A DNA stretch of 20,000 nucleotides from an uncultured virus (IMG/VR IMGVR_UViG_3300030616_000579) (IMGVR_UViG_3300030616_000579); one strand, 5' to 3'. Positions 1-17,800 are shown, counted from the stretch's first letter. Numbers and translations: made by a program. The notes: generated from the letters alone by a model not told the origin.

Positions 1-2200
1 AAACATTGATGTCATCTAAATCTACAACCAAAGATGTAAACTCAGCATCCGTTGCTATTTGTAAATTGTACCGACCTGCATCAATATTCGTCCAATTAAA
101 CGTTGGTGTCGATGTATAAATTGTTGTTTGATTACCGTTTCCTTGAATAGAAATAAATTGTATTGTTTCTCCAGTTGGTACCCAACCTCCAGACCCAGAA
201 AAAGATGGCATCGTTTCAGAATATGTTGTAACAAACAAAGAATCAATAGTTACATTACAATCTGAACCTGTTGTTGATGTAAACCAGAAACTCATATTAC
301 CACTAGGTATATTTGTAGTAATTTCTCTATCCAATGTTCCATTGTAATACACCTTAATACTTGTACTATTAATAACAAATGTTCTCAACTCATATTCATC
401 CAACGTAGCATTCACCGAATCATTTGTACCGCACCAACTATCTGATACACGAGTTTTCAACTGCACATTTGTTGAATTCATTATATAAGCACATCCATTC
501 TCTGGATAGTAAGATGGTGTACCAGATGCATCACCAAACCCAAGTATTGCATCATTAACTGAATCATCACTTACTTTTACTTTCATATTCAAAACACACG
601 GTATTGAAAACTGTTCCTCCGAATTTATATATTTGTTTGACCCAGATATGGTAAATTCACCATCACTATAATTCGATGTAGAACTTACACTTTCGACATC
701 ACCTTGCCAATATGGTGCAAAGAACCAATCAATCGGTACTTTCATCATACGCACTGAACTTGCCACATCAGTTTGATTTGCATAGGTAACAAGAACACAA
801 TCATCTTGTGTTAACACTGTTGTTGGATAGGACGTTCTTGAAGATTTATAAATTAAATTCCTTTCTAGACTTTTAAAAGACGTACAATCATCAACTGAGT
901 ATGTAACGTTTAATGGTATTCGCACTGCCTGATTGTCATATGTATTGTTATGTAATAAGAAAATGATGCGGTTCGGGTTCTCGGATATTCTTTGTAAAAA
1001 CTGCGGAGCCTTCCCGTTATATCTACCAGATGAAGTTGATGTTCCCCATTCCCAACCACCATCAGGTGAGAAACTATGATATATATCTAAAATTTCAGTT
1101 CTGCTACTCTGATATATCGAACCGTTTAACAATTCAACCATTGTTGTTTCATCAGAGTCAACCCCTTCTATTTGCGGTATCAAACTTATCGTATTCCAAT
1201 TTGTACCATTGTCATCACTATAACATAAGTATGTACCCCACTCACCTGGGTCATCTCCAATATCAGCCGTTGCACCTATCAACATTGTACCATTAGACAA
1301 TTTTATAAATGGAAACACAGCACCAGAATAAGCATGAGGAATATTCAAGTCTTCTCCTCCATCCCAAGTAGTTCCATTATCATAACTTGCATATACATAA
1401 CACGGGGAGTTATCTCTTGAATGCCAGTTTAAACACCCAGATAACAATGTACCATTGTCTGAAACACACAGAGAACTAGACAAAATAGACCACGTTCCTT
1501 GAACACCGATTGGATGTGTTTGTACTGGGTCTGTCCATGTTGTTCCATTATCAAATGAATAGGTATGATATGCTCTATAATTTCCATTATTTCTTGGTGC
1601 AACACCAGAATTGTACATAATAATAGCAGTACCATTTTGAAGTGTTGTACTTGCAGTTCCAGCTGCATATGGTCTACCAGCACTATTATTAGAAATCTGT
1701 ATATCATAAAATGTTGCTGTTGAATTTACAAAATAATATCCATATGTGTCACTGAATGGAAATACAGCTTCTGCACTACTGTTCAATGATGCATTTTCAT
1801 TACCAGTAAAAAGATAAATAGTTGAATAATTGTTTGTTGTTGTATTTATCCAATATGTAGCAAGTGTTGTACTGTTTTCTTGCAACCATTGAGGTAATTG
1901 TTCACCTTCCGTTGCATTGTTTGATGAACAAAACCTGATGTCATTTGGAAAGTCCTCAGAATAATCATTCAAATAGAACGTTCCATTTTCTGCATCATCT
2001 ATTCCATTTCCCTTATATAAATTGACTTTCATTTGATGGCACTCAAGTGAGTTTGATATAGAAATTGATTTATAATATTGCCATCCTGTCGATTCCTCCA
2101 ACTCAGCACGAATGTTGATATTATAATTTAAAACACTCACGCCCATCACTAGTGATACTACAACTATTATCACGAATATACTTACTTTCTTTCCTTCCAT
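1..2200 (-). CDS. Exported protein, 3'-truncated (>730 aa): signal/anchor + DUF2341-like domain + BNR/Asp-box sialidase-like beta-propeller + ConA/LamG-like sandwich + start of FN3-like domain
   Basis: Not in the ORF track because it has no stop in the window. Manual translation from ATG 2200 (AGGTGG upstream) gives MEGKKVSIFVIIVAVSLVMGVSVF..., then WQYYKSISI...DFPNDIRF...LPQWLQ...ATYWIN...TIYLFTGN (DUF2341-like). Five Asp-box-like motifs follow (SFDNGTTW, SYDNGTTW, SDDNGTNW, SPDGGWEW, SVDDCTSF), with ETTMVELLNG, RIPL and SYP. The frame ends TPTFNW...YNLQIATDAEFT and stays open to the window edge. Confidence 0.88.
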   Translation of the reverse strand, partial: MEGKKVSIFVIIVVVSLVMGVSVLNYNINIRAELEESTGWQYYKSISISNSLECHQMKVNLYKGNGIDDAENGTFYLNDYSEDFPNDIRFCSSNNATEGEQLPQWLQENSTTLATYWINTTTNNYSTIYLFTGNENASLNSSAEAVFPFSDTYGYYFVNSTATFYDIQISNNSAGRPYAAGTASTTLQNGTAIIMYNSGVAPRNNGNYRAYHTYSFDNGTTWTDPVQTHPIGVQGTWSILSSSLCVSDNGTLLSGCLNWHSRDNSPCYVYASYDNGTTWDGGEDLNIPHAYSGAVFPFIKLSNGTMLIGATADIGDDPGEWGTYLCYSDDNGTNWNTISLIPQIEGVDSDETTMVELLNGSIYQSSRTEILDIYHSFSPDGGWEWGTSTSSGRYNGKAPQFLQRISENPNRIIFLLHNNTYDNQAVRIPLNVTYSVDDCTSFKSLERNLIYKSSRTSYPTTVLTQDDCVLVTYANQTDVASSVRMMKVPIDWFFAPYWQGDVESVSSTSNYSDGEFTISGSNKYINSEEQFSIPCVLNMKVKVSDDSVNDAILGFGDASGTPSYYPENGCAYIMNSTNVQLKTRVSDSWCGTNDSVNATLDEYELRTFVINSTSIKVYYNGTLDREITTNIPSGNMSFWFTSTTGSDCNVTIDSLFVTTYSETMPSFSGSGGWVPTGETIQFISIQGNGNQTTIYTSTPTFNWTNIDAGRYNLQIATDAEFTSLVVDLDDINV

Positions 2201-2209
2201 TTTTTCCAC

Positions 2210-2590
2210 CTATAAAAAATGCATTCCTTCAAATGGTAATTCCCGTGAATCATCGTACCATTCATAGGACAATGATTCTTGGCCCCATTCTTTCTTTTTT
2301 CTCTGTAAATATCGTTTTAATACCATATCGTTTTTGTTCCACTTTCTTTGAGTAGTAAACGATTCTACTTGTAAAACACCATCACGAATAACTCTTTTTT
2401 TATGTTTCCACGTTCCTTGTGAACTAACTTTTGTTGTTCCACCAAACAGTTTTCTTAACTCTGTTTCTACTTCTCGTGCTCGTTTTTTATGTTCTCGTTT
2501 TGATATCTTCTTTGAAATACCAGTTGTATCTGGTACATAAACAACAATATGAACTGATAATCCTCTTTTTACTGGCCAATCATGTGTCAT
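2210..2590 (-). CDS. Hypothetical protein, 126 aa, possibly PII-like/DUF3574-like fold
   Basis: VVYVP...LFGGTT....GTW.....RD.V..V.SF...KKEWGQES pattern resembles DUF3574/PII-like small proteins as I recall them. Abuts the upstream gene (TAA-ATG). Confidence 0.65.
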   Translation of the reverse strand: MTHDWPVKRGLSVHIVVYVPDTTGISKKISKREHKKRAREVETELRKLFGGTTKVSSQGTWKHKKRVIRDGVLQVESFTTQRKWNKNDMVLKRYLQRKKKEWGQESLSYEWYDDSRELPFEGMHFL

Positions 2591-2695
2591 TTACCAATCT
2601 CCACATACAGGACAATATGTAAATGATTCATGTTCTCCATCATCGATTGTTTTCATTACACTCCCACAATTTGAACAAATTTTTGATTTTTGCAT
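2591..2695 (-). CDS. Zinc-ribbon microprotein, 34 aa
   Basis: Manual translation MQKSKICSNCGSVMKTIDDGEHESFTYCPVCGDW has CxxCG...CPxCG. It exactly fills the gap, with a TAATG overlap upstream and TAA-ATG downstream. Confidence 0.8.
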   Translation of the reverse strand: MQKSKICSNCGSVMKTIDDGEHESFTYCPVCGDW

Positions 2696-2940
2696 TATTC
2701 CAATCCGCCTATAGTGTTACCCCAATAGTCTTTTGTTTTTTTCCTCGATGGAACAACATACCCTGCATTTATCAAAGCATTTGCTGTACGTCCATAATGT
2801 CCTTGTAAATGCCACGCTTGTCCTGTATCTACAAGGTGTTGGAATAATTTTATTATTCCTTTTTTGTCTAACTGGCCTGTTTCGTATGCAATAATATTTG
2901 ATGTTAAATCATACGGTTTTGGCACCTTTACTTTTTTCAT
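2695..2940 (-). CDS. Conserved phage-type hypothetical protein, 81 aa
   Basis: IIAYExGxL...LFQHLVDTGxAWxLQGHYGRTAxALIxAG resembles a widespread small phage protein family (recognised from memory, function unknown). ATGA overlap and GGAGAGG upstream. Confidence 0.8.
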   Translation of the reverse strand: MKKVKVPKPYDLTSNIIAYETGQLDKKGIIKLFQHLVDTGQAWHLQGHYGRTANALINAGYVVPSRKKTKDYWGNTIGGLE

Positions 2941-3143
2941 TTTCTCATCCTCTCCATATTTTTTCCAGTATAGATAAACAATTTAGACTTATGGAATTCC
3001 GACTTTAGTATTTTTTCATATTTGTTTCCACATTTCGGACACTTTTTAGACATCGGACTTTTTCTATTGTAAACATGCTTACATTTCAAGCAAATTACCG
3101 TATGGTGTGGATATGGTTCCTGGATTGAGTCGTACATTCTCAT
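2937..3143 (-). CDS. Zinc-ribbon protein, 68 aa
   Basis: CLKC...CPKCG; basic; overlaps both neighbours. Confidence 0.78.
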   Translation of the reverse strand: MRMYDSIQEPYPHHTVICLKCKHVYNRKSPMSKKCPKCGNKYEKILKSEFHKSKLFIYTGKNMERMRK

Positions 3144-3811
3144 TTAAATGCTCTGCTTATAAATTTTTGAATAATAACAGGATGTGGTCTATCTGCTTCA
3201 AGATATAATTCTTCTTGTTGTTCTGGTGTTTTTCGCATTTTAATTCGTGGAAGTGTTCGTTCAATCACTAAAAACGTTGGTCGTGGTTCAGTTGTTAACG
3301 CCTTTGACATTGTTCGTGCTTGTTCAACAGTTGGTCTATGTACCATCTGTGCATACATTCCTCTTCCACGTGTCTTTCTATACCTGATTGCACCTTCACG
3401 TTCAAAATCTCTAATTGCAGCTTTACCATGTAACCCTGTTGCCTGTCCTACTTCCCAGTGGGCTATCTGTCTGTCTGATGTTGTTTCAGGTCTTCGTGGG
3501 TCATCATAGAGTTCATCGAGTTTCTCTTCAGAGAAATCTAACATTTCACCACTAGGTAAAATCCATCCACCTTTATGTGGGTCAGTAGTAACACCAAATT
3601 TTTTTCGAGCCCGTTCAATGTCTCCTTCTCTGTGAAACCGTGGATTAAATATTCTACAATCACGAAAGTTTGGAACACCATCATGGTCAATATCACTGGT
3701 GTCTAGTTTTTTAAAATCAACTGTCCAACTAACAAAACGATTTTTTCTACTAGGAAACCTCTTTCGTTTTGGTATCTTGATTATTGGTTTTGAATATATA
3801 TTTTTATACAT
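3140..3811 (-). CDS. Hypothetical protein (~223 aa) with N-terminal TSP3-like DxDxDG motif and a phage-type domain
   Basis: Start moved from TTG 3829 to ATG 3811 (GGTGAG upstream). DIDHDGVPNFRDCRIFNP is followed by FGVTTDPHKGGWILPSGEMLDFS...RQIAHWEV...GAIR...PTVEQ. Confidence 0.8.
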   Translation of the reverse strand: MYKNIYSKPIIKIPKRKRFPSRKNRFVSWTVDFKKLDTSDIDHDGVPNFRDCRIFNPRFHREGDIERARKKFGVTTDPHKGGWILPSGEMLDFSEEKLDELYDDPRRPETTSDRQIAHWEVGQATGLHGKAAIRDFEREGAIRYRKTRGRGMYAQMVHRPTVEQARTMSKALTTEPRPTFLVIERTLPRIKMRKTPEQQEELYLEADRPHPVIIQKFISRAFK

Positions 3812-3832
3812 GATATTTAATCTCACCAATTT

Positions 3833-3846
3833 TATTTAAAGATTTG
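3833..3846 (-). promoter_or_regulatory. Candidate archaeal TATA box with upstream A-run
   Basis: The minus strand reads CAAATCTTTAAATA in an AT-rich intergenic gap. TTTAAATA (3840-3833) ends ~22 nt before ATG 3811, a spacing compatible with a short-leader or leaderless transcript. Confidence 0.4.
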
Positions 3847-3861
3847 TGAAATTTTAATATT

Positions 3862-4140
3862 TTAGAATATAACTTTATCTCCTTCTTCATCAAATACTCT
3901 TCCTCTGTATTTTTTCAACAGTTCAAAAGCTGGTTTGTGTTTTATGTACGTGTTTTCTGAATAAACATTTGCACCACTACCAATAACAAATTTCTTGTTT
4001 TTGTCAAGCACCTCTAAGTGTCTATGTCTTCCAAAAACTTCTGTTTTATACCTGTACCCAATATCTTTTATCATTTTTTTAAACTCTTTTAATGTTATTG
4101 GTTCTCCTGGATTTATTATCATAGTTCGTCTCATAGGCAT
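3862..4140 (-). CDS. Hypothetical basic protein (~92 aa)
   Basis: Start revised to ATG 4140 (GGAGG upstream, 1 nt after the upstream stop). No recognised motif. Confidence 0.75.
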   Translation of the reverse strand: MPMRRTMIINPGEPITLKEFKKMIKDIGYRYKTEVFGRHRHLEVLDKNKKFVIGSGANVYSENTYIKHKPAFELLKKYRGRVFDEEGDKVIF

Positions 4141-4141
4141 T

Positions 4142-4498
4142 TTATAACCTCCCAAATGATTGTACTTTATAGATGTTTTCTGTCCATCCATGCGTTTTTT
4201 TATTTTCGTGTAACGCTCTTTTCAATAGTTTAACTAACATCTGATAATTCCACTTATGACATTCATCTCGTCTGAATATTGTTGTACCTGCTTGATATAG
4301 TTCGCCAAACGATAACGATGTCACATTTCCTTGTGTATCGTGATATCCAGTGATTTCATAGTGTGGTCGTTGTTTAGTCATCAAGTTGATACCGAAATTA
4401 CCACCAGACTTGTTTTTGTTATGCCATCGTTTTATGACCCTCTCAAGACCCAAATCTCGTTTGAGACTTGTTCCTCTCAGTTCTTTGATATTTATCAT
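4142..4498 (-). CDS. Hypothetical protein, 118 aa
   Basis: Overlaps the synthetase stop codon by 4 nt; GGAG upstream. No recognised motif. Confidence 0.7.
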   Translation of the reverse strand: MINIKELRGTSLKRDLGLERVIKRWHNKNKSGGNFGINLMTKQRPHYEITGYHDTQGNVTSLSFGELYQAGTTIFRRDECHKWNYQMLVKLLKRALHENKKTHGWTENIYKVQSFGRL

Positions 4499-5130
4499 TT
4501 ATCCAACTCCCTATTTCTCATCATAATTTTTTTCAATTTTCTTTTTTCATCATATGTAAATCCATCACGTTTGTAATTCTCGTGAGTTTTACTGAGATAG
4601 AACTTACCTTGGCGTTTTGTTTGAATCTGTATTTCAATTGGTCGTTCTCCTCTCCCTGCACGAATTATCATATGATATGCAACGTAATATCCATCCTTTG
4701 GGTTCTTGTAGAAGTTCTTTTCTTTGATAACTGGATACATTTTTCGTATTTCTTTCACTTTCGGCATGATATCCTTTTCTTTATCAACATAGATACGCAT
4801 CGCACCAATATCATTGAATGAATCAAGGTGTTTTCTCCTTAGTTTATTGATACAAGACCTAACTGTCTTTACTCGATAATCCTTTGCACCAACCCTTTTT
4901 GCTACACTCTTTGTTGTTTTTGTATATGGAATAGTGTGTTGTCTTATTTTCCGTAATTCCTCTGTCAATAATATCTCTGGATTTACTTGTATTGTTTTGT
5001 TTGGATTGAACGGATACATATCATCAGCATTAGGAATACCGTCCTCATCAAAATCACCAAACATAAATGAGCGGTTATTGATGTTTTTATTTAAACAGAA
5101 TGTTTTTATTTTAATTGGTTTTTGTTTCAT
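4495..5130 (-). CDS. RelA/SpoT-domain small alarmone synthetase (SAS)-like nucleotide pyrophosphokinase with N-terminal TSP3-like motif
   Basis: Ordered RSH synthetase motifs: RVKTVRSCINK, NDIGAMRI, YKNPKDGYYVAYH, IEIQIQT, then H. No hydrolase, TGS or ACT domains. Start likely ATG 5130, 2 nt after the upstream stop. Confidence 0.85.
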   Translation of the reverse strand: MKQKPIKIKTFCLNKNINNRSFMFGDFDEDGIPNADDMYPFNPNKTIQVNPEILLTEELRKIRQHTIPYTKTTKSVAKRVGAKDYRVKTVRSCINKLRRKHLDSFNDIGAMRIYVDKEKDIMPKVKEIRKMYPVIKEKNFYKNPKDGYYVAYHMIIRAGRGERPIEIQIQTKRQGKFYLSKTHENYKRDGFTYDEKRKLKKIMMRNRELDK

Positions 5131-5132
5131 GT

Positions 5133-5357
5133 CTACCAATATCTCGTTCTGATTCTATATGGTGTGTGTCTTGGTGGTTTATATGCCAATCGTGGTCGTT
5201 TCTTTTTCCTTCGATATGTACTTCTTGCTGGTCGTGCAATATTCTCTGTTTGTTGTGCAATACTGTTAGCTGTACGTGCTAACAAACCAAGACTTATGCC
5301 CATCCCTGCAATACCAAACACAGTGTTTGCAGTATTAGCTGGGTTATATGTTGCCAT
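5133..5357 (-). CDS. Small protein, 74 aa: hydrophobic Gly-rich helix plus highly basic tail (candidate virion membrane/matrix protein)
   Basis: AGGAGGT SD; VFGIAGMGISLGLLA segment followed by RRKKKRPR...RIRTRYW. Confidence 0.78.
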   Translation of the reverse strand: MATYNPANTANTVFGIAGMGISLGLLARTANSIAQQTENIARPARSTYRRKKKRPRLAYKPPRHTPYRIRTRYW

Positions 5358-5361
5358 ATTT

Positions 5362-5481
5362 TTACCTCCTTTTCTTTTTTGGATGTCTACATATTGGAGT
5401 TCGGTTTCGTCCTCGCCCTCCTTGCTTTCTTCCTATCTGCGTTCCATCCTTTCTACCAAATACCCCTCGTGGTCGTGACAT
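5362..5481 (-). CDS. Gly/Arg-rich basic microprotein, 39 aa
   Basis: Manual translation MSRPRGVFGRKDGTQIGRKQGGRGRNRTPICRHPKKKRR. TAATG overlap with the upstream gene; its 3' end contains the SD of the next gene. Confidence 0.72.
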   Translation of the reverse strand: MSRPRGVFGRKDGTQIGRKQGGRGRNRTPICRHPKKKRR

Positions 5482-5681
5482 TACTGCACCCTCTTAATCA
5501 ATCCTCTTTCCATAAATACTCGTGCATACCACTTTCTATTTGTATATGGGTCAGGGCCAACTACTGTCAACCATCCATTCTCACTGTATTCAGGCCCAAA
5601 CATTGATGTCTCAATATACCTAAGGGGTTTCCCGACAGCCTTCTTTAAATCCTTTTTTGTAGCATAACTTGCCCCTAACAT
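5481..5681 (-). CDS. Conserved phage-type hypothetical protein, 66 aa
   Basis: YxTKKDLKxxVGKPLRYIETSMFGPEY..NG...W/FYAxVxMExGLI resembles a small phage protein family (from memory). AGGAG upstream. Confidence 0.8.
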   Translation of the reverse strand: MLGASYATKKDLKKAVGKPLRYIETSMFGPEYSENGWLTVVGPDPYTNRKWYARVFMERGLIKRVQ

Positions 5682-5698
5682 ATTATCTTCTCCTTCTC

Positions 5699-5902
5699 TT
5701 ATTTCTCTCTACTCCACACCTTAATGATGTTTTTGTCAAATTCATCAGGTTCAACCCTAATAATTAAATTATGTCGTTTATACAAACGAATGATATCAAA
5801 TCTCATTTTTTTCGGAACTGTTCCATTATACTGAAACTTTTTACCATTAAATTCTTTGTACACGTTGAACACATTTAATTGCAAGTTTTTTTGGTTTTTC
5901 AT
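5699..5902 (-). CDS. Hypothetical protein (~67 aa)
   Basis: Start revised from GTG 5923 to ATG 5902 (AGGTG upstream). No motif. Confidence 0.65.
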   Translation of the reverse strand: MKNQKNLQLNVFNVYKEFNGKKFQYNGTVPKKMRFDIIRLYKRHNLIIRVEPDEFDKNIIKVWSREK

Positions 5903-5922
5903 ATATACACCTGTTAGCCACA

Positions 5923-6031
5923 CCTTTTTTCTATGTCAGCACTAGGGTTGGCGTGCATATTACCCAATGCTCGAGAATGGGAAAATGAACTGCAGTGTTT
6001 TTGCACCACAGTTCATCATAAAACGGAAAGG
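5923..6031 (-). ncRNA. Candidate structured RNA (four-way junction or strong hairpin) in an intergenic gap
   Basis: Minus strand: 13-bp hairpin ATGAACTGTGGTG-CAAAAA-CACTGCAGTTCAT (two G-U pairs), two smaller hairpins (CCCA..TGGG; GCAC..GTGC), closed by CCTTT-CCG-TTTTATG / CATAGAA-A-AAAGG. Confidence 0.35.
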
Positions 6032-6130
6032 TTAACCTTTGACACCGTTTTTCCCATATTTTTTTCTGCGAGTCCGCCACGCTTTCTTTGCAGCTTTGGC
6101 TTTCTTCGCAGATTTCCTTTTCTTTGCCAT
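6032..6130 (-). CDS. Lys/Arg/Ala-rich microprotein, 32 aa (protamine/H1-tail-like)
   Basis: Manual translation MAKKRKSAKKAKAAKKAWRTRRKKYGKNGVKG; AGGAGGT SD; 16/32 K+R, no acidic residues. Confidence 0.82.
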   Translation of the reverse strand: MAKKRKSAKKAKAAKKAWRTRRKKYGKNGVKG

Positions 6131-6150
6131 ATTGTATTACCTCCTATGGT

Positions 6151-6267
6151 CTAAGGTTTTCTTCCTCGCACTTTCCGTGGACTTCTCTTAACTTTCAGGC
6201 GTTTCACGTGTTTCGCTCTTTTAACACGCATTGGTTTAACACGTTGTGCTACCCTTGTTTTTTTCAT
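6151..6267 (-). CDS. Lys/Arg-rich microprotein, 38 aa (protamine-like)
   Basis: Manual translation MKKTRVAQRVKPMRVKRAKHVKRLKVKRSPRKVRGRKP; GAGGT SD overlapping the upstream stop; 19/38 K+R, no acidic residues. Confidence 0.78.
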   Translation of the reverse strand: MKKTRVAQRVKPMRVKRAKHVKRLKVKRSPRKVRGRKP

Positions 6268-6272
6268 TTTTT

Positions 6273-6512
6273 CTACCTCTTTTGTTTTAATTTACTAAAG
6301 AAATATTTTGCATCTGCACGAGCTTTACGTTCCGTATCTTTATCTTCAGTAACGTTTGCAAGTGATTGTGCTTTTCTTCCTGCTGATAAATATCGTGATT
6401 TCATTGTTTTACGTTTATCAGTTGCTGATAAAAGTTTTGCACGTCTAGTTGATGGTTTTTGGTCTTTTTTCCAACCAGAATGTTTCTTTGGATTGAACCA
6501 TTTTTTAGCCAT
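6273..6512 (-). CDS. Basic helical protein, 79 aa
   Basis: Start revised to MAKKWF at 6512 (TAATG overlap with 6512-6634). GWKKDQ...RR...AGRKAQSLANVTxD..T...AxADAxYFF. Confidence 0.8.
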   Translation of the reverse strand: MAKKWFNPKKHSGWKKDQKPSTRRAKLLSATDKRKTMKSRYLSAGRKAQSLANVTEDKDTERKARADAKYFFSKLKQKR

Positions 6513-6634
6513 TACTTTTTCCTTCTCTTTTTTGCTTTCCATTTTTTAATCGTCCACTTTCCTGCCACTCCAACATCCCGTCTCAATTTCACTAATCCCT
6601 CGTTTGCCTCATCTAACATTAATTTTGTTTTCAT
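6512..6634 (-). CDS. Basic microprotein, 40 aa
   Basis: Manual translation MKTKLMLDEANEGLVKLRRDVGVAGKWTIKKWKAKKRRKK. Starts right after the upstream TAA, has GGAG upstream and ends in a TAATG overlap. Confidence 0.65.
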   Translation of the reverse strand: MKTKLMLDEANEGLVKLRRDVGVAGKWTIKKWKAKKRRKK

Positions 6635-7591
6635 TTATGTCCAACTCCCAAAATTAAATGCGGTGAAGTTTGTTTCACCGTATGGTTTATAATTGTAACC
6701 ATTGATATCATACCCTTCTACACAATTCAAAAAATTATTCAACATGTAACTACAATAATTGGTGTCACATTGTTCGTCTATTCCCATAGACAAATTGTAT
6801 CCCATATTGTTGATAAAAGAACAGTTTTGTGCTTCACACAACCACATTCCATTTGTACCTCCATCAAAAATATTATTCAATACCATAATATGAGAAACAT
6901 ACTCGAAGTTGATACCATAGAAATTTTCATAAAAATAATTGTTTGATATTGTACTACAACGTATAAGTGATGGGTCTGCATCTCCTTCACATCGAATGCC
7001 ATAAAGATTATCTATAAAATCACAGTATGTAATGCGAACATTTGATGCATCATCATCTGAGTTAGGTAGAATAGCTATGCCTGCTGATGTTGTTTTAGAA
7101 AAGTTTTTAAAAACACAATTGTCAACTGTAAGACCAATCATGTCGTCATCAGTACAAAAACATATACCATTGACAATGCCAGTTGCAGTATCTCCAAGGA
7201 AATTTAAATCTCTAAAACTGATAAATCCAGGAGGAGTAACACAATTAAATATACCATTAGGTAAAGAACAACTATTTACTTGAAGGATTGTATGGTTTCC
7301 TTGACCAGTTATTGTCACATTACTGATTACATCTATCGAACTACTAATTAATATTTCACAAGAAGGTAAAATGATAGAACCACCTGCAGTACTATTCAAA
7401 TCCCAGATAGCAAGTTGTAAGTTACTCTCATTCGTTGACCAATAGTTTCCTTCACTGTTTCTAATATATGTTATAACGTCATCTTTCTCATCAGAGATTG
7501 TTCTATTTACAGATAACACAGATGCTATGCCTACACAAACTAAGAACATTACTACAAGAATGATTTCTATTTTTGTTCTTATTCTTATCAT
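6635..7591 (-). CDS. N-terminally anchored right-handed beta-helix protein (pectin lyase-like/NosD-type), ~318 aa
   Basis: Start revised to MIRIRTKIE at 7591 (AGGT upstream; matches the paralog start). Signal/TM helix, LQLAIWDL...GGSIILPS...ITGQG cap, and repeated ISNN.F..N..GI rungs. Confidence 0.85.
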   Translation of the reverse strand: MIRIRTKIEIILVVMFLVCVGIASVLSVNRTISDEKDDVITYIRNSEGNYWSTNESNLQLAIWDLNSTAGGSIILPSCEILISSSIDVISNVTITGQGNHTILQVNSCSLPNGIFNCVTPPGFISFRDLNFLGDTATGIVNGICFCTDDDMIGLTVDNCVFKNFSKTTSAGIAILPNSDDDASNVRITYCDFIDNLYGIRCEGDADPSLIRCSTISNNYFYENFYGINFEYVSHIMVLNNIFDGGTNGMWLCEAQNCSFINNMGYNLSMGIDEQCDTNYCSYMLNNFLNCVEGYDINGYNYKPYGETNFTAFNFGSWT

Positions 7592-7601
7592 TTTTTTATA
7601 C

Positions 7602-10301
7602 CTATACAATTGGTAAATTAGATGAATTTACAGTGTTACTTCCAAGAAGAACATTTCCATTTGTTGTACCCAAACAATTATTCGCAACAAAGATATTAAA
7701 ATCACAAGTACCAAATTCACGGAACCCATAATTACAATTATAAATTCTATTTCCAAATACAGTACAATTATGTACGCCACTAAGCATAATGCCTTCTGAA
7801 ACACAATCAAAAATCATGTTATTACTGATAGTTGTATTATCGTTATCAGTAAAGATTCCATCCAACGTACAATTCCAGATATAATTATCTGTAATTAAAT
7901 TATTTTGATAATATTGACATGAAATACCTGTTCCTGTAATATTGTATATAGTGTTTCCTGATACATGTTGACATCTTTCTATTCCTTCATCTCCACCAAA
8001 AGAAATAAGATTATTTGTAGCAGTATGCACCCTAAATATCGAAAAACTTTCAGTATTATTTATTGTATTACCAGATGCAATATCATAATTAATGTATGAA
8101 TCGTTTCCTGAACCCCAAATCCCTCCATAACAATTTATAATAACATTACCATTGATAGTTGCAGACCCAACAGATGCATCATATCTCCTGATTGCTACTG
8201 ACCCAGTATTAACAAGTTTGTTATTTGATATTATAGGATATCCACTATCAAAAAAGATTCCATAACCAGATGTGTTTTCTATGTAATTATCAGTTACAAT
8301 ATTTTCTTTTACTCCTATAGATGGATTGTCTGATAAATGCATACCATACTGTTCCATATTTTTAATATGATTTCCAGTTACAATACAACCATCAGTACGA
8401 AAGGCTGTCTCAACATTATAAACATAATTACCTGTTACTGTTGCATTTAAAGCTAAGATTCCTCTACTCCAAAAAGGTGTTGATTCATATGCATATGCTG
8501 ATGAATTAAGGTCGTGAATAAAATTATTAGAAATTATGGCTCTATTTGATTTTTGCCCTTCCATTCCTATACCAATACTAGTATTACCAGTAATGATATT
8601 GTTTGTCACAATCATATCATGTGACGTGTTTGTATATTCACCACCAACAACATGGGTGTCTTCTAAATATACTCCAACTGCCCACGTATCTGCAATGTAG
8701 TTATCACTGACAATGAGATTTTGTCCTGCTAGAAACACTCCTCCTCCATAGAAATGGTCTTTTTTACCTTTCACAAAGCAATTCTTAATAGTAATATTTG
8801 ATATATTTAAACAATGAGTTGAAGAGTCATAATCACCAACATAGATGCTTGTTCCACTAGAGTTGTAGACCCAACAATTATCAATAGTTATATTTTCAGC
8901 TTCATCTCGTATCCACATTACTGATGGATATGCGTGTGTTTCTTGTCCTTCTTCGTTACCGTCCAGTCGTATCTTCTCTATTTCAATGTTATGCTCATCT
9001 TGTATCTGAACCATTGTAACATTTGCTGTATCATTCAAGAACAACAATGTACTGTATCCTTGTCCTACAATACGTACATTACTCCATACATTGATAGTGC
9101 TATCAATAGTTATTTCACCAGATGGAAGATATACTGTTCCTCCATTAGAACTGTTTAAGTCATCAATGGCTTCTTGGATATAGTTATCTGTTACATCCCA
9201 GTATCTACCATTTGAATTACGAATATATGTTTCTTCTGGTTCATAGAGACCAGAACCAAAGTTTCTACAATTAACAAATATCGATGGGCGATTGCCATTA
9301 TCTTCAACTAATTCCATCCCATCATGATATACTGTCAAATCACCTGATGCAGTACAAGCTGTAAAGATGTTGTTTCCTGTTCCACCGCCACCAGTAATAT
9401 TCACTAATCTTCCGTTGCCTTCAAACCGTAAATCATTGAATTTGTTATTTGTAACACCACCAGTTCCACCTAAATATATACATGAACCATTGGAACTATT
9501 TATACCCTCAAAATTGATGTTTGAAAACACATTACTATCTGCATCTACAAGAGAAAGTCCTCTTACTGGTTTATTTGACCATCCTATTGCAAGTTGTCCG
9601 TCTCGTATTATATTGATATTTGCAGTGTCACTAAGAGATATTCCATATACACAATTATCTATACGAAAACGTTCTATTACATTGAAAGCAGATGTAGCCC
9701 CAGTAAAATCACCACCAGTGATATTTATACCAACTGAATAAGTGCTACCCGTATCTCTCCAGAAATCATCAATCCAAACAGCTTCAATGTGTCCATATTG
9801 CATTGCTCTAAATCTGATGCCACCAAGAGGAGCTGTACGTTGTTTTCCATTGATAACCATGTTTTTAATTTCTACAAACCTGGAACCGTTTCCATTAGAA
9901 CCTTCACCACAATCAATGATATATTCATTGCCAAATGTAACTGATGGATAAAGTTCAGTTACAGAAAGTTGATGTCCTGAAGAACCATATCCTGTTTCCC
10001 AACCAGAACCAATAAGTGAAATAGACCTATTATATGTTTTAATTCCTTCGTCTAACTCAAACACACCTGGAGGTAACCATACAATACCACCATTTGTTGT
10101 ATTTAAATCATTAATTGCAAGTTGAATATTACCTGCATCACTTGTGTTCCAGTAGTTCCCTTTACTGTTTCTTATCAGTGCTGTAAAATCATCCCCTGTA
10201 TCTGTTATTGTTCTATTTACAGATATTACAGAATATATAACAACAGATACTAGAAGTAACACAACCAGAAATGTTTCTATTTTTGTTCTTAAACGTATCA
10301 T
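7602..10301 (-). CDS. N-terminally anchored protein with two tandem right-handed beta-helix modules, 899 aa
   Basis: Signal/TM helix; two IQxAIxDL...GGxVxLPxG...GxG caps typical of pectate-lyase-3/tailspike-like beta-helices; many IxxN.I.N...GI rungs. Confidence 0.88.
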   Translation of the reverse strand: MIRLRTKIETFLVVLLLVSVVIYSVISVNRTITDTGDDFTALIRNSKGNYWNTSDAGNIQLAINDLNTTNGGIVWLPPGVFELDEGIKTYNRSISLIGSGWETGYGSSGHQLSVTELYPSVTFGNEYIIDCGEGSNGNGSRFVEIKNMVINGKQRTAPLGGIRFRAMQYGHIEAVWIDDFWRDTGSTYSVGINITGGDFTGATSAFNVIERFRIDNCVYGISLSDTANINIIRDGQLAIGWSNKPVRGLSLVDADSNVFSNINFEGINSSNGSCIYLGGTGGVTNNKFNDLRFEGNGRLVNITGGGGTGNNIFTACTASGDLTVYHDGMELVEDNGNRPSIFVNCRNFGSGLYEPEETYIRNSNGRYWDVTDNYIQEAIDDLNSSNGGTVYLPSGEITIDSTINVWSNVRIVGQGYSTLLFLNDTANVTMVQIQDEHNIEIEKIRLDGNEEGQETHAYPSVMWIRDEAENITIDNCWVYNSSGTSIYVGDYDSSTHCLNISNITIKNCFVKGKKDHFYGGGVFLAGQNLIVSDNYIADTWAVGVYLEDTHVVGGEYTNTSHDMIVTNNIITGNTSIGIGMEGQKSNRAIISNNFIHDLNSSAYAYESTPFWSRGILALNATVTGNYVYNVETAFRTDGCIVTGNHIKNMEQYGMHLSDNPSIGVKENIVTDNYIENTSGYGIFFDSGYPIISNNKLVNTGSVAIRRYDASVGSATINGNVIINCYGGIWGSGNDSYINYDIASGNTINNTESFSIFRVHTATNNLISFGGDEGIERCQHVSGNTIYNITGTGISCQYYQNNLITDNYIWNCTLDGIFTDNDNTTISNNMIFDCVSEGIMLSGVHNCTVFGNRIYNCNYGFREFGTCDFNIFVANNCLGTTNGNVLLGSNTVNSSNLPIV

Positions 10302-11197
10302 CTAATTCTTCTCCCAAATCTTAAATGTGGCATACGAACTGGTTTAAAATCAATTATCGGCATCATACCCATAGGTCGTTCTCCGCCACCAAGAGAATAC
10401 TCACGTGCAACAAAAGGTCTCTTAGGAAGATATGATTCCTCTTTTGATATTGGTGCATACTGTTGAACACCTGGTGGTAATCTTCGTTGTTCAACCGAAT
10501 ACTCATCTGATATCTGTATGGGTTCTTCTTGTACTGGTATTTGTTGAACAACAACTTGTTGTTTTGGTGGTGCTTTTCTCCACCAACCAGGTGGCGAAGG
10601 TGGTTTTCCAGCAGGCGCCACTGCTCCCCGTTGAAGTTGTTGTGCTCCTTCTTTTCTTATCTTTATTCCCTCTTTCATGTTTTCTTTAAATTGTTGCCGT
10701 TTCTCATACCCACGTAAATATGCTTCGCCTCCTTCTTTCATATGTGTTGCTGTACGAGCTATTCCTTTTGTTATTTCCTTTCTGTTCCGTCTACTTGCTT
10801 CATTTTTGTTTGTCGATACTATTACTTGTTCAACGTCTGGTCGTTTTTTTGCTTGATTGACAACTTTACTAACATTATCAGAAGTAAAAGCTCCCCAATT
10901 GTACCACTTATCACCTGTGATTTTAACTATCAAATAATAAAAAGATGGTGCCAACTGTTTAGTTGCTTTTTCAATCTTCTTTTCTTTTCGTTTTTCACTA
11001 AAATCTTTAAATTTTTCTTTAATCTCAGTGAGTCCTTGTCTATTTTTATCATATGGATAACAATCCAACACATTGATTTTGTTATCTTTATCCCAGTCAC
11101 CAAGCGGTTTCAAATTAGATTGCCAGTATCGGAAATCTTTTTTCTTTTTTGGTTTCAACGACTTCATCTTCATTGGATTAAAGAATTGTGATTTCAT
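10298..11197 (-). CDS. Basic hypothetical protein (~299 aa) with N-terminal TSP3-like motif and Pro/Gln-rich C-terminal half
   Basis: GDWDKDNKINVLDCYPYDKNRQG near the N-terminus. Start likely ATG 11197 (TGATG overlap; AGAGGA upstream). No signal peptide. Confidence 0.8.
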   Translation of the reverse strand: MKSQFFNPMKMKSLKPKKKKDFRYWQSNLKPLGDWDKDNKINVLDCYPYDKNRQGLTEIKEKFKDFSEKRKEKKIEKATKQLAPSFYYLIVKITGDKWYNWGAFTSDNVSKVVNQAKKRPDVEQVIVSTNKNEASRRNRKEITKGIARTATHMKEGGEAYLRGYEKRQQFKENMKEGIKIRKEGAQQLQRGAVAPAGKPPSPPGWWRKAPPKQQVVVQQIPVQEEPIQISDEYSVEQRRLPPGVQQYAPISKEESYLPKRPFVAREYSLGGGERPMGMMPIIDFKPVRMPHLRFGRRIR

Positions 11198-11442
11198 CAA
11201 TATCCTCTTCCCGTTCCTCTTTTATGTTTATCAACTTTTGAAGATATATCTCCATATCTTCGCAGTTTTTTGTTCTTAGGAAAAACAATTTTTCCCATAT
11301 TTATTTTCAAATGATGTTGTTTACACCACTTTTGTACCTCTTTAACTTTCAAACATCTACTTGAGACATAGAACCCAGTTACTGTAGGCATCTTCCTAAA
11401 TTTATAGTATTTGTTTTTTACTTCATCTAGACATTTCATCAT
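11197..11442 (-). CDS. Basic hypothetical protein, 81 aa
   Basis: GAGGT SD upstream; coupled to the downstream gene; Lys-rich. Confidence 0.7.
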   Translation of the reverse strand: MMKCLDEVKNKYYKFRKMPTVTGFYVSSRCLKVKEVQKWCKQHHLKINMGKIVFPKNKKLRRYGDISSKVDKHKRGTGRGY

Positions 11443-13900: not shown

Positions 13901-14899
13901 CTATGTTCTATTTGCCCATATTAATGAAACATCAGTGGCTACTACATCGCCACCCCAATCAACGTCATAAATAACATCATATGGAGTTTCCCCACTCCTA
14001 TTATCCCAACATACAGTAGCATCTGTCGCAACGATATCCCCAGAGTTGGTTACATCATATCGTGACCCACCTGTCTTATAAGAATAACTTTCATTAATCC
14101 AAGTTGTTCCATTTGATGCGTTTACAGACCAATAATACATTGTATCACCAATAATCAACTCGTTTGTGTATCCAGATGATGTGTCTATCTCTAACCGTGA
14201 TGTGTCTTGTCCTAACCAGGTTTTCATCATCGTTGTTGTATTTGTTCCTGTTGTCATATTGAGATAGTAAATATATACATCAAACCCTGTTCCTGTTCCA
14301 CTTATACTAATATTAGTTGGTGGTCGAGTAACACTTGTTGATTCATTAGCTGGATATGGACTAGATATTGAAAATGCACCTTGTGGTTGGAACCCAATCA
14401 TAAATAATCGTTCAGAAGCATTTGTATGATTAAATGATAAAACGCCAGTTTCATTAGTTGTTGTCTCTAAAAACAATGTTGAATTCATAGAAACATTATA
14501 TTGTGAATTACTTTTAAGCCCCGATACATTGTAAAACACCGTTCCAGAATATGTTTCAGACCAAAATTCCAATACCGTGTCATATGATGATGCATTTAGT
14601 ATATCTTCATGTATATACACAAGAGAAACATTTACTCGTATATCAGAATCAACATAGAACCCTGTATTGTTGAATTTCACATACGATTCATCTAACACTA
14701 TTTGCTCAAACTTCATCGATTGGTTTGTTGCAAAATAAACATTACCACCAGAATTATGATAATATACACCATCTGATGAGAAATCACGTGTCGTATCAGG
14801 AGGACTTACAGTTATGAGAGCAGTTATTTGTACAGCTAAGAACAGTAGAATAAAAACTGTAATAACCATCTCTATTTTTATTTTTGTTTTTAATTTCAT
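13901..14899 (-). CDS. Exported glycoprotein, 332 aa, with Ig/FN3-like module and C-terminal dockerin-like domain
   Basis: N-terminal hydrophobic helix; SPYPANES...YYWSVNASNG module; duplicated YDVTNSGDIVATD...WDNR / YDVDWGGDVVATD...WANR at the C-terminus. Confidence 0.83.
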   Translation of the reverse strand: MKLKTKIKIEMVITVFILLFLAVQITALITVSPPDTTRDFSSDGVYYHNSGGNVYFATNQSMKFEQIVLDESYVKFNNTGFYVDSDIRVNVSLVYIHEDILNASSYDTVLEFWSETYSGTVFYNVSGLKSNSQYNVSMNSTLFLETTTNETGVLSFNHTNASERLFMIGFQPQGAFSISSPYPANESTSVTRPPTNISISGTGTGFDVYIYYLNMTTGTNTTTMMKTWLGQDTSRLEIDTSSGYTNELIIGDTMYYWSVNASNGTTWINESYSYKTGGSRYDVTNSGDIVATDATVCWDNRSGETPYDVIYDVDWGGDVVATDVSLIWANRT

Positions 14900-17800
14900 G
14901 TTCTGTTACTCCACACTAATGATACATCTGTTGCTGTAATATCTGTACTTGCATCTACATCGTACAACCCAAGATATGCGTACTCTTCCTGTCGATTATT
15001 CCAGACAGTTATTACATCTGTAGCAGTAACATCGTTACTTGAAGTCACATCATATCTACTATGTTCTGTTCTATATCTGAATGTCCTGTTATTCCATATT
15101 GTTCCATCAGATAGATTCACCCAGAAGTAATATGTTGTATTTCCCCACCGCCACTTTGTGTTATATCGTTGTGAGTTATTGAATGTCTGGTTGCACATAA
15201 ACACACCAGCACCTACCGTAAGATTCTCACCTATTGCACACCATCCAGAAGACCCCGCTGATGTTTTATTCGTATAAAATGATACATTCATTATATCTCC
15301 ATCTGCATCATAGATGAAACAACTGATATTCGCAAGTAATAAATCTACATTTACAGAGTTGTTTCCTGGATACGTCCAATTGATAACAGGAGCTGTATTA
15401 CTTCCATATAAGAAACTATCATTACTACTGTCATATGCGTTTTCAATACACGTTCCATTTACATAACTGAATAGATATGTACCAGAAGGAACTGCATTTG
15501 CAGATACATTAACTGTAACATTAAATGAGTCAGTGTCTCCTGATTTTTGGTTTGTTGTTAGATTAAACGTGTAGTTTTTATCTGAACCAGTTGCATTTGC
15601 AGGTGGAAGAGATGTCATTACATATGTAGAACCAGTTGGTAAAGTATGATTTACGGTAACATTTGTATTGTTTACCGAACCAGTATTTGTTACTACTATT
15701 GTATAATTAACGTGATGCCACGTTGAAGTATCAACTATTTGTGATATATTGCATTCAATTGTTGCATTGATATCGTTGTAACTATCTTCCATTTGCCATT
15801 CATTACCAATTCTACCGTGACCCCAATACTGAATGTTTGATTCATTCACACCTGTCCAAACACCATCATAGAAATCTGCTATAGTAACATCAGTAGAAAG
15901 ATTCATGTAGTAATCCCACACTGTTAAATGACCGTCAAACTCATCGTCACATGCATAATAATTGTATAATGAATAATTGTTTGATTCGTTCCAGTTTTCC
16001 CACACTGCAGTCAACGTTTCTGCTTCATCGAGTCCTCTATTGATAGTCATTACATGCAATCCAAACGTATCGTTACTGTTCAAATACTGATGGCTTCCAA
16101 CATATCCTTTTTCAAAGTAATATCGTGGAATTTCAGCAAAGTAACTTCTATGGAAATAGTTTCTATGATATGGTGGCATGCAACTTTCAAACGCACCATA
16201 GTCAAGTGCATACTCCCATCCTGCTATTGCATCTACATCTGATGGTGAAAACTCATCAAGTCCATGATACATTGTAATATTAGTTTGCCACGTAAAGATA
16301 CTAGCATCATACCATGCCCACCATACAATAGCAATATCGTTATCATCCCAATTTCTATCATTGTCAACATCAATACACATTACTGCAGAATCAAAATCGT
16401 CTTGTGTTCCATCTGTTGTATCTTCTATGTGAATACCTAAAGCTTCGTGGTATGTTGAAGAAATATTTGTAAATGTTGTTGTATAATAATAGATAGAACC
16501 ATTTTGGTCATCCCATTCAGTCCATTCACTACAACTAATATTTGGTGTGTAATATCGTGATTCCATACTAAAGAAAGATGAAAGATTGAGACCAGTCAAT
16601 GTCACACAATCAAGATATTCATCCCAAGTTAAGTTTCCATCCATGTACTCATAGAAACAATCCATATATAATGATTGATTTTGTTGTTTGAGTGTTATAT
16701 TATGTAATGGGAACGTCATCAATGGTATTCCATCTTCACCATAGATAGGATGGTTCTCCAACTGTGATGTATTTGCATATTCATCTCTTGAATAATTTAA
16801 CCTCCACATATCAATTTTATCAAAATCTGCGGTAAATGTTACATCATATGGATTCCAGGTTACAAGACCCCAACAAACTGATTGTGGTTCTTCTAAATCC
16901 TCATATTGTGAACCCCCTGCAGTTTCGTTATCGCACACCCAACCAGGCGGTTCTACATCATAATCAAAATTTGTTGATGAATCAAAGATAGGCCACGCTT
17001 TTGCATTAATTGTTCCTGCTAACGAATTATACAATGTTCTAATCCAGATACCATCATATCCAGTATCGTTGCTGTTTGGATAAAAGTCATAATCGAATCC
17101 AGGGTCACAAGGCCACAATACTTCCCAATAGTTGTAACAATCATCTGGACTTGCCACAGCTGTTCCATCCTTCGTATTGACCATTGCACCTCCAACCATT
17201 TTTGACAATAAGTATGCTTTATCAGTTCCAAACAAAACCATATCATATTCATCATTGTTTGTAAATGAATAGATAACACCAACATATGGTTCAGTTGTTG
17301 TATTTCCAGTGTGGTTGAATCGTGCTCGTAATAACGAAGATGTTCTATTTGCAGATGTATGATTTGAAATCGTATATGATAAACCAGCTATATCTCCACC
17401 TGTTCCATCAGAGTTATCATATCGGTAAGCCCATGACCAGTTGTGTTCTTTATTGAGTGTTTCATTATATGCTAACCACTTTGTTGCTTCATATTCTAAC
17501 CAATCACTGTTTTCAAGTGAACCACCCTTTGGATGTTCCGTTAAATTCCAATCACTGGCTTCAATACCGCAACATGGACAGGTTATTGTCTCGTTTAATT
17601 GAGAAACATATACAAATGCAGAACTCTCATTGTAACAATCTGAATCCCAGAACTCGTGGTCGTATTCTGTTACATAAATAGTAACATTGTTCCACCCATA
17701 CCCTGATACATTCTCTGTTGATGCATTGTATGTAATGTATGATGTATTACAATATACCATATCTGCTTCATCTTGTGTTAAATTCCAGTATAAATGTTGA

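Follow-up and report, generated by a model that had tools for sequence, protein, structure and literature searches.

A stand-alone RelA/SpoT-type synthetase with a TSP3-like cap and a predicted domain-swapped active site on a likely archaeal virus record

The closest described systems to the enzyme reported here are RelP (SAS2) and RelQ (SAS1) of Bacillota, RSH synthetases in which the Glu of a W...E motif probably reads guanine. RelP and RelQ have been described as homotetramers (PMC6793942), and SASs can be promiscuous between A and G (PMC12691689). The toxSAS enzymes are defined by a conserved toxin–antitoxin layout (10.1101/575399), and PhRel (Phrann gp29), FaRel2 and CapRel among them are tRNA pyrophosphokinases, whose reaction is reversed by SAHs (10.1101/2021.04.30.441581). 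RelA/SpoT domains of phage polyvalent proteins have been proposed to alter the host by alarmone synthesis; the same work places these domains in phages of Spirochaetes and Epsilonproteobacteria, reports a paucity in archaea, and in its available sections mentions neither a cap nor stand-alone archaeal forms (PMC5512222). RSHs in archaeal mobile elements also have precedent, namely gene 6 of the Nitrososphaera provirus Pro-Nvie1 (CBX88950.1) and BDI55125.1 of the Asgard-associated element 10H_0 (LC711081), an element that is CRISPR-targeted by Asgard archaea and whose protein is listed as a 'bifunctional synthase/hydrolase' (10.1101/2021.07.29.453957), although Pfam finds no HD domain in BDI55125.1.

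The window, by which we mean the whole 20,000-nucleotide stretch of DNA that was analysed, forms the terminal part of a linear virus record that measures 135,095 bp and is estimated to be 90% complete. The features on which the argument depends are the following:

4495..5130, minus strand: stand-alone RSH synthetase with TSP3-like cap (P0001, 211 aa), recognised by Pfam, PDB matches and fold
5011..5055, minus strand: TSP3-like motif D26-x-D28-x-D30-G-x-x-N34-x-D36-D37-x-x-P40, recognised by conservation, TSP_3 score and covariation
4831..4875, minus strand: ATP-donor half with R86, K88, S92 and K96 (98–99% conserved) and K100 (K or R in 91%)
4813..4830, minus strand: short hinge, residues 101–106, with an S92-to-D107 spacing of 15; predicted swap point
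4795..4812, minus strand: catalytic D107 (98%) and R112 (only 23%), the latter covarying with position 170
4672..4692, minus strand: G-loop GYYVAYH with Y149 (95%), A151 (93%) and H153 (98%)
4618..4635, minus strand: EIQIQT with E166 and Q168; 81% of the family has Lys at position 170
4570..4584, minus strand: H183-x-x-Y186-K187, 92–96% conserved; the preceding W...E of RelP/RelQ is absent in the alignment
5133..5357, minus strand: 74-aa gene, hydrophobic N-terminus and basic C-terminus, ending 2 nt before the synthetase start
4142..4498, minus strand: downstream 118-aa ORF overlapping the synthetase stop codon (ATGA), the only TA-like candidate
3140..3829, minus strand: 229-aa basic protein (pI 10) that lacks a synthetase and bears a motif of this kind close to its N-terminus
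10298..11200, minus strand: 300-aa basic protein (pI 10) that likewise bears such a motif and lacks a synthetase; it has a paralogue at record positions 7737–8657

The synthetase is encoded on the minus strand by an ORF that begins with ATG at 5130 and runs to 4495; starting instead from the in-frame TTG at 5139 would add three residues. Its sole Pfam family match is RelA_SpoT (53.5 bits with the cut-off at 27; E 3.5e-14), an identity far beyond chance, and its sequence matches in the PDB are RelQ, Rel and RelP. With RelA_SpoT above the curated cut-off and neither HD nor regulatory domains, the protein belongs to the SAS class, and it has the residues that characterize SASs, namely the catalytic Asp and Glu, R-x-K...S...K, and the Tyr and His of the G-loop. 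This single Pfam domain, without HD hydrolase or C-terminal regulatory domains, is not the layout of long bifunctional RSHs. The initial annotation, made from the sequence alone, had described a full ordered synthetase motif set and no hydrolase, and both statements hold: R86-x-K88, S92, K96 and K100 are followed in canonical order by DIGAMRI (residues 107–113), GYYVAYH (147–153), EIQIQT (166–171) and the C-terminal set H183-x-x-Y186-K187, with all catalytic residues present, and a profile search of the 135-kb record, which is about 90% complete, found neither HD_4 nor NUDIX (each 0/1). That annotation had also named a different nucleotidyltransferase fold as an outcome that would speak against it, but this does not apply, because the top fold matches are all RSHs. 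Twelve positions (R86, K88, S92, K96, D107, Y149, H153, E166, Q168, H183, Y186 and K187) are 92–99% conserved over 266 rows that are mostly 25–45% identical to P0001. The roles of the donor half are transferred by analogy from FaRel2 R64, K66, S70, K74 and R77 (PMC11782079). Judged from these residues, the synthetase is very probably active.

The departures from the usual motifs that had been reported are real in sequence, but they are the norm of the family and not peculiar to this gene. Rows without a basic residue at position 112 have one at position 170 in 101 of 106 cases, and rows with a basic 112 in 31 of 47 (the rows are not independent); the 112–170 pair ranks 6 among 17,597 in the covariation analysis. 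In P0001 the charge is retained, since R112 is kept alongside Q170. EIQIQT was also considered as a sign of a damaged enzyme, a view that this compensation rejects. In Rel, two arginines sandwich the donor adenine (PMC7983052).

P0001 belongs to a family that we define by the cap and the motifs rather than by a stable tree. A phmmer search over 1.84 billion representatives returned 426 matches at E<=0.001, and at the stricter limit of E<=1e-10 it returned 125 clusters; in almost all of the best 150 of the 426 matches the match begins at the TSP3-like motif, and weaker matches may include other RSHs. The strict motif pattern fits 127 of 153 proteins, and pattern scans yielded 5 viral loci, at least 71 metagenome loci and at least 25 genome loci, some of which carry the motif only. 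The five viral loci came from scans of viral contigs with a 14-sequence alignment, whereas the same scans with a single protein or with four sequences found no relatives, and tblastn against 50,697 phage records gave seven weak matches, none with 80% coverage and none including the cap. PHROGs holds no family for P0001. The family thus collected takes in polyvalent-type bacterial proteins and an Asgard element as well as archaeal virus-like contigs. Stand-alone members are found on virus-like contigs, where their neighbours are small basic genes, integrases, LPD29 and DUF3560; members are also present in Balneolaceae genomes, and long fusions with SNF2 or zeta-toxin domains occur in genomes of Fodinibius, Aliifodinibius and Phaeodactylibacter. 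The domains added among 65 long proteins include DUF2958, JAB, NUDIX (fused in the relative P0122), methylase, zeta toxin and SNF2.

A tree of the synthetase region placed 192 family sequences in a clade apart from 12 references (FastTree support 0.894), but with eight more sequences the SAS references nested inside the family (support 0.68); the references did not include FaRel, FaRel2, PhRel2 and most of the 30 SAS subfamilies. We make no claim of subfamily placement, because the monophyly of the family is unstable between the two FastTree runs. By sequence, P0001 appears to fall in none of the SAS subfamilies tested: it scores 31.6 bits with the NCBIfam YjbM equivalog, whose cut-off is 320, and it departs from the RelP/RelQ motifs EIQIRT...WA.IEH and GYRS.H, as W and E are absent, Ser is replaced by Ala, and Arg by Gln/Lys.

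The enzyme had been compared with the toxSAS enzymes of phages and prophages. We found no conserved neighbour or antitoxin across the 21 loci with stand-alone members that remained after three partial or near-duplicate ones were dropped (many of the contigs are only 1–4 kb long), and this is not a classical toxSAS toxin–antitoxin module. The downstream 118-aa ORF has no match in 102 related loci and no Pfam match. Upstream, the 74-aa gene has a single match in the 102 loci, a homologue that sits two genes upstream in the nearest of them, and a paralogue in the second module of the record; its product is a candidate internal virion protein. An HD_4 gene lies immediately upstream in two of the 21 stand-alone loci, which are close kin, a NUDIX gene lies one to three genes upstream in three, and a GNAT gene is found in one. 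Occasional HD and NUDIX partners were counted toward a free-nucleotide product; the HD neighbours do not discriminate between products, because SAHs also reverse tRNA pyrophosphorylation. Zeta toxin, SNF2, JAB, methylase, DUF3560, LPD29 and GNAT, all fused to or adjoining relatives, support a role in conflict, as in polyvalent proteins (PMC5512222). The P0001 gene lies among conflict-type genes, and by analogy the enzyme would work like the conflict-type RSHs of phages.

Our preferred reading, which we hold tentatively and a little short of even confidence, is that this RSH-fold enzyme modifies a free purine nucleotide, works as a swapped dimer and throttles a probably archaeal host. Pyrophosphate from ATP would be moved onto the 3'-OH of the free purine nucleotide to give (p)ppNpp. 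Residues 1–102, comprising the cap, the long helix and the ATP-binding strand and helix, would pair with residues 105–211 of the other chain, which would supply D107, Y149 and the G-loop, E166 and H183; a lone chain is predicted to be inactive, because each active site would be composite. The pairing of chains may act as an on/off control that replaces an antitoxin, perhaps together with a metal bound by the acidic cap. The enzyme would act early or ride in the particle, as has been proposed for polyvalent proteins, and host metabolism would be slowed or rivals excluded.

That the product is a free (p)ppNpp is, in our judgement, evenly balanced. For it speak the fold scores, which are higher for RelP/RelQ (Z 11.3–12.6) than for SaEAS (8.8), CapRel (8.7), Tas1 (8.1) and FaRel2 (5.2–6.0), and the H-x-x-Y-K set, which the family shares with Rel, RelP and RelQ and which the two PhRel-type proteins compared lack. 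Guanine selectivity is doubtful, and a non-canonical product is plausible. At residues 136–139 most members carry an acidic E-x-[DE]-D, which resembles the RelA EXDD motif; P0001 has K-E-K-N there, and position 138 is mostly acidic across the family. It is possible, if rather unlikely, that the target is instead the 3' end of tRNA or of another RNA. The residue at position 151 points in this direction, as it is Ala in 93% of rows, Ala in PhRel gp29 and a Corynebacterium phage homologue and Gly in a CapRel-like protein, but Ser at the equivalent position in all 12 housekeeping RSHs captured. The family core is basic (median pI 9.6; P0001 9.9, against 5.6–6.2 for RelP/RelQ-like proteins), tRNA use by FaRel2 involves an N-terminal extension and a basic patch (PMC11782079, 10.1101/2021.04.30.441581, 10.1101/2024.07.05.602228), P0001 has an N-terminal extension of its own and the family its mostly acidic residue at 138, and a universal tRNA target would suit a family with archaeal and bacterial hosts. 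However, FaRel2 is the weakest fold match, H-x-x-Y-K is retained in the family, no antitoxin gene was found, and no tRNA gene appeared in record positions 1–116,000, which take in the part of the record outside the window. Net charge was tried as a substrate test and rejected: tRNA-targeting gp29 is acidic (pI 5.9), and neighbouring non-enzyme proteins of the record are as basic as P0001. For tRNA use, 10.1101/2021.04.30.441581 finds that sequence offers no clear signature. We regard it as unlikely that the product is something other than these two, or that P0001 is inactive.

For the preferred reading of a free-nucleotide enzyme, the architecture is the second element, and it is one that the initial annotation missed. 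The AF2 monomer, predicted from 94 sequences (pLDDT 95.1, pTM 0.80), has its best fold match in RelP/RelQ (VIA Z 12.6, rmsd 1.6 Å, 108 residues), with the C-terminal half only; the superposition covers residues 102–211, and one CapRel row starts from 61 with an rmsd of 4.1 Å. The SYNTH fold is thus matched in the C-terminal half, the N-terminal half is swung away in the monomer model, and the rmsd over the whole alignment to fold matches is 17–21 Å (20.6, 20.6, 20.4 and 20.7 Å to the long Rel chains 7oiw, 8acu, 1vj7 and 5iqr). A two-copy prediction scored 0.77, and its best control 0.00; among solved structures, 20 of 30 pairs and 1 of 23 single chains attain this mark, figures that apply here only roughly. 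Two-copy runs agreed in at least 97% of contacts with a partner pLDDT of at least 86, the cross-chain contacts join residues 87/88 with 108–110, and the top covarying pair, 58–98, is also cross-chain. As only two copies were modelled, the swapped form is given as a dimer. In the model an unbroken helix spans residues 90–104, and from S92 to D107 the spacing is 15 for 159 of the 261 rows of the family, compared with 16–26 in the 15 outside RSHs measured (four outside references are missing from this measurement) and 17, two more, in most long Rel. The short hinge and the single helix over residues 90–104 offer a cause for the predicted swap. P0001 is modelled as open when a monomer and domain-swapped when a dimer, with each active site lying across two chains. 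The relative P0100, which has a spacing of 18 and was modelled from the same 94 sequences, lies 3.3, 3.9, 4.6 and 4.2 Å from 7oiw, 8acu, 1vj7 and 5iqr, although this control is one protein and the values are Foldseek rmsd over about 140 columns. Short hinges accompany stand-alone proteins of up to 300 aa (104 of 131), and long hinges accompany longer proteins (44 of 64), in 195 dereplicated rows among which kin are not independent. A swap is not needed family-wide, since 102 of the 261 rows carry longer hinges.

An ordinary closed SAS, monomeric or RelP/RelQ-like, for which the swap would be a modelling artefact of the short loop and control would lie in timing or an unrecognised inhibitor, we consider unlikely, although the following points favour it. 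Residues 4–211 of the ESM Atlas model of P0001 (pLDDT 0.68) align full-length to a Bacillota SAS model with TM 0.70, which would imply a closed monomer; one DPANN Rel has a spacing of 16, just one more; Pro or Gly, which could turn, is present in 54 of 159 short hinges; and complex predictors sometimes assign intra-chain contacts across chains. Two different predictors nevertheless give the open or swapped form with high confidence, and the matched long-hinge control folds closed. Our literature search found no domain-swapped alarmone synthetase.

The remaining part of the architecture is the cap, whose motif in P0001 reads D26-F-D-E-D-G-I-P-N-A-D-D-M-Y-P40. The columns D26, D28, D30, D36, D37 and P40 are 94–98% conserved, with G31 and N34 excepted, and the D-x-D-x-D-G...D..P spacing fits TSP3. 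The Pfam TSP_3 model gives 18.5 bits (E 0.0016) against a cut-off of 25, and the motif occurs as a single copy with no tandem repeats, which falls short of a recognised thrombospondin type 3 repeat. The name 'TSP3-like', as the motif had been called earlier, is therefore fair. The motif is not simply a terminal delivery tag, as it is part of the conserved enzyme core, although three non-enzyme proteins of the record share it. Measured in 249 of 265 proteins, the distance between motif and R-x-K has a 5th-to-95th-percentile range of 59–75 residues, and 67 of these proteins have over 100 aa between their N-terminus and the motif; because the spacing is near-fixed wherever the motif lies, motif and enzyme travel as one unit. 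Covariation, at an effective depth of 191, joins the cap to the start of the long helix (A35–T56 at rank 3 and I17–R60 at rank 11 of 17,597 pairs), on which the model predicts that it packs. A more far-reaching combination seems to us improbable: stand-alone members would be obligate swapped dimers with composite sites, the metal-binding cap would mark several proteins for loading into the particle, dimer state and falling calcium would activate the enzyme upon entry, and it would make a non-guanine alarmone or cap RNA 3' ends in archaea lacking any alarmone system, gating itself without an antitoxin.

Because the motif recurs on non-enzyme proteins, sorting or binding is a possible second use. 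It would be a much larger step, and a very improbable one, to see in P0001 mainly a particle- or DNA-associated basic protein that is sorted by its TSP3-like tag and whose synthetase is weak, dormant or directed at a non-nucleotide partner. The motif does lie near the N-terminus of three non-enzyme basic proteins of the record, in two of them after a similar K-P-I stretch, motif-only basic proteins are also present in related loci, and R112 is lost in most members; but that loss is compensated, and twelve active-site columns conserved at 92–99% would be needless for a structural role.

For the host, the initial annotation of an apparently archaeal virus-like element finds support in the record. 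The ORF scan covered 111 ORFs outside the window (minus-strand ORFs of 70–1100 aa and one longer) and 19 inside, and it revealed PolB, RFC, ERCC4, a PD-(D/E)XK nuclease, STT3/AglB, and sugar and phosphonate enzymes; terminase, portal and HD domain were not among the matches. RFC scores above the archaeal small-subunit cut-off (351.6 bits against 303), STT3 matches the archaeal model with E 2.7e-61 but under the cut-off, and the best PolB model is archaeal, likewise under its cut-off. The 11.2 kb of intergenic DNA contain 18 TATA-like sites, whereas 200 shuffles gave a mean of 7.7 and a maximum of 17. The record contains two paralogous gene blocks and a weak virion-type PHROG match (E 0.0087), and an Atlas search with its 778-aa surface protein yielded no host signal. 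For positions 2200–6600 of the window no sequencing run was on record, an outcome that does not bear on expression. Going by these models and sites, the host is likely archaeal. A bacterial host, with the enzyme at the head of an ordinary (p)ppGpp stringent response, is hardly credible: family members do occur in Balneolaceae and Phaeodactylibacter genomes, and 15 of the 68 members of the nearest Atlas cluster bear the label Uroviricota, but the archaeal RFC, STT3 and PolB models, ERCC4 and the TATA-like excess speak against it, and the bacterial members are long fusions on another branch of the tree.

It had also been assumed that archaea lack a canonical ppGpp response. This agrees with two model archaea, as (p)ppGpp was undetected in S. 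acidocaldarius and H. volcanii and RSHs are described as rare in archaea (PMC10249747), but not with small-genome DPANN archaea, which carry long Rel. RSHs are known in DPANN, with a frequency of 41.7% in Woesearchaeota (PMC8407392), and the available part of 10.1101/2025.02.15.638363 contains nothing on RSHs. In the host phylum of one relative, 126 of 301 genomes, of 0.7–1.9 Mb, gave a profile match. Thirteen loci (L121–L133) hold Rel-like ORFs of 617–644 aa, several of them beside TFB, aIF2-gamma, Alba or Kae1, and six of the seven of these ORFs that were scanned pass the TIGR00691 cut-off. Within this phylum sample, a full-length match to cap plus synthetase was found only in the centre genome.

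In comparison with known systems, RelP and RelQ (6fgk, 6ewz, 5ded) are nearest to P0001: they likewise stand alone, measure about 210 aa and keep H...YK, and they are its best match both in sequence and in fold, C-terminal helices included (Z 11.3–12.6, rmsd 1.6–1.9 Å, residues 102–211). P0001 differs from them by its TSP3-like cap, a hinge of 15 instead of 21–23, the lost W...E, and Ala for Ser in the G-loop; it is also basic instead of acidic, viral, and predicted as a swapped dimer and not as a closed-chain homotetramer. With the toxSAS enzymes PhRel, FaRel2 and CapRel it shares the residence on mobile elements, the missing hydrolase and an N-terminal extension, and with PhRel and a CapRel-like protein also Ala or Gly in place of the G-loop Ser. 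Unlike these, it has no conserved or fused antitoxin, its N-terminal module is another one, H-x-x-Y-K is present, and the fold match is weaker.

The RelA/SpoT domains of phage polyvalent and MuF proteins are connected to P0001 through its relatives, many of which are fused to SNF2, zeta toxin, JAB, methylase or LPD5 or lie beside LPD29 and DUF3560, whereas P0001 itself stands alone, with no MuF and no multi-domain fusion. BDI55125.1 of the Asgard-associated element belongs to the same family, with cap and core (188.7 bits with our family profile) and a hinge of 15, but is a 1003-aa fusion, compared with the 211 aa of P0001. Gene 6 of Pro-Nvie1 is also a stand-alone RSH of an archaeal virus, with 210 aa and adjoining the portal gene; it differs in being acidic (pI 5.2), in having EIQIRT and a hinge of 20, in belonging to a tailed virus, and in grouping with the outside references. 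In the literature searched, the family is noted only as a mislabelled gene, although further members may be included in the subfamily tables of 10.1101/575399 and in the files of PMC5512222. Novel here are the family as such, the TSP3-like cap that it carries, its occurrence across archaeal elements, and the predicted domain-swapped, self-gating architecture. If true, the domain swap would be a way to build and control an RSH active site that the literature searched does not describe, and with a conserved synthetase on many archaeal virus-like elements, a role of alarmones or of pyrophosphorylated tRNA in archaea becomes testable.

The synthetase is present only in the second of two paralogous gene blocks on the virus record (G000), both of which contain an ATPase (phrog_22963), small basic genes, a 300-aa protein bearing the TSP3-like motif, and a 780-aa surface protein, for which 66% identity was noted between the blocks.

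G000 688-11091: gene block 1, synthetase absent
G000 110640-128983 (window: up to 13888): gene block 2, containing the synthetase
Window 2695-2940: DUF7417/phrog_3908 small protein, within the synthetase's gene run
Window 13901-14899: large secreted protein, duplicated acidic motif (YDVT...DIVATD) at its end
Window 14896-19950: large secreted protein, same duplicated motif at its end

This acidic motif looks like a dockerin. A variant of the TSP3-like motif, often ending in DC-x-P, is also found near the N-termini of basic non-enzyme proteins, and may be a shared sorting or binding module.

Window 3140-3829: basic protein with the variant
Window 10298-11200: basic protein with the variant
G000 7737-8657: basic protein with the variant
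L020 3563-3967 and L022 2652-3224 (related loci): basic proteins with the variant
L071, L072, L074, L076: basic proteins with the variant

On the Asgard-associated element 10H_0, a family member is surrounded by a run of very basic proteins (L135 3956-16254) that have Arg/Lys-rich N-termini in common, and three of its neighbours share a near-identical 60-aa leader, possibly a packaging signal.

In Fodinibius, Aliifodinibius and Halalkalibaculum (L084-L097), the cap and synthetase are fused to an SNF2 helicase in a ~2,415-aa protein adjoined by an AAA ATPase and a transglutaminase; a single genome holds up to four such loci, which suggests a multi-copy integrated element, so far undescribed. 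At two other loci, the gene immediately upstream of the synthetase encodes a small HD_4 hydrolase, so that each locus offers a naturally occurring pair of enzymes for assays.

L013 69-515: HD_4 hydrolase
L014 1363-1797: HD_4 hydrolase
L134 1-1920: further synthetase (Y-x-A-x-H, H-x-x-x-Y-K), archaeal genome

The frame that ends with the L134 synthetase is 1,661 aa long. The L083 genome (G001) has a size of 1.1 Mb; the genomes sampled from its phylum resemble those of DPANN archaea. In small-genome archaea (L121-L133), long Rel-like genes (617-644 aa) adjoin archaeal TFB, aIF2-gamma, Alba/S17e and Kae1; long Rel proteins in DPANN archaea were reported previously (PMC8407392).
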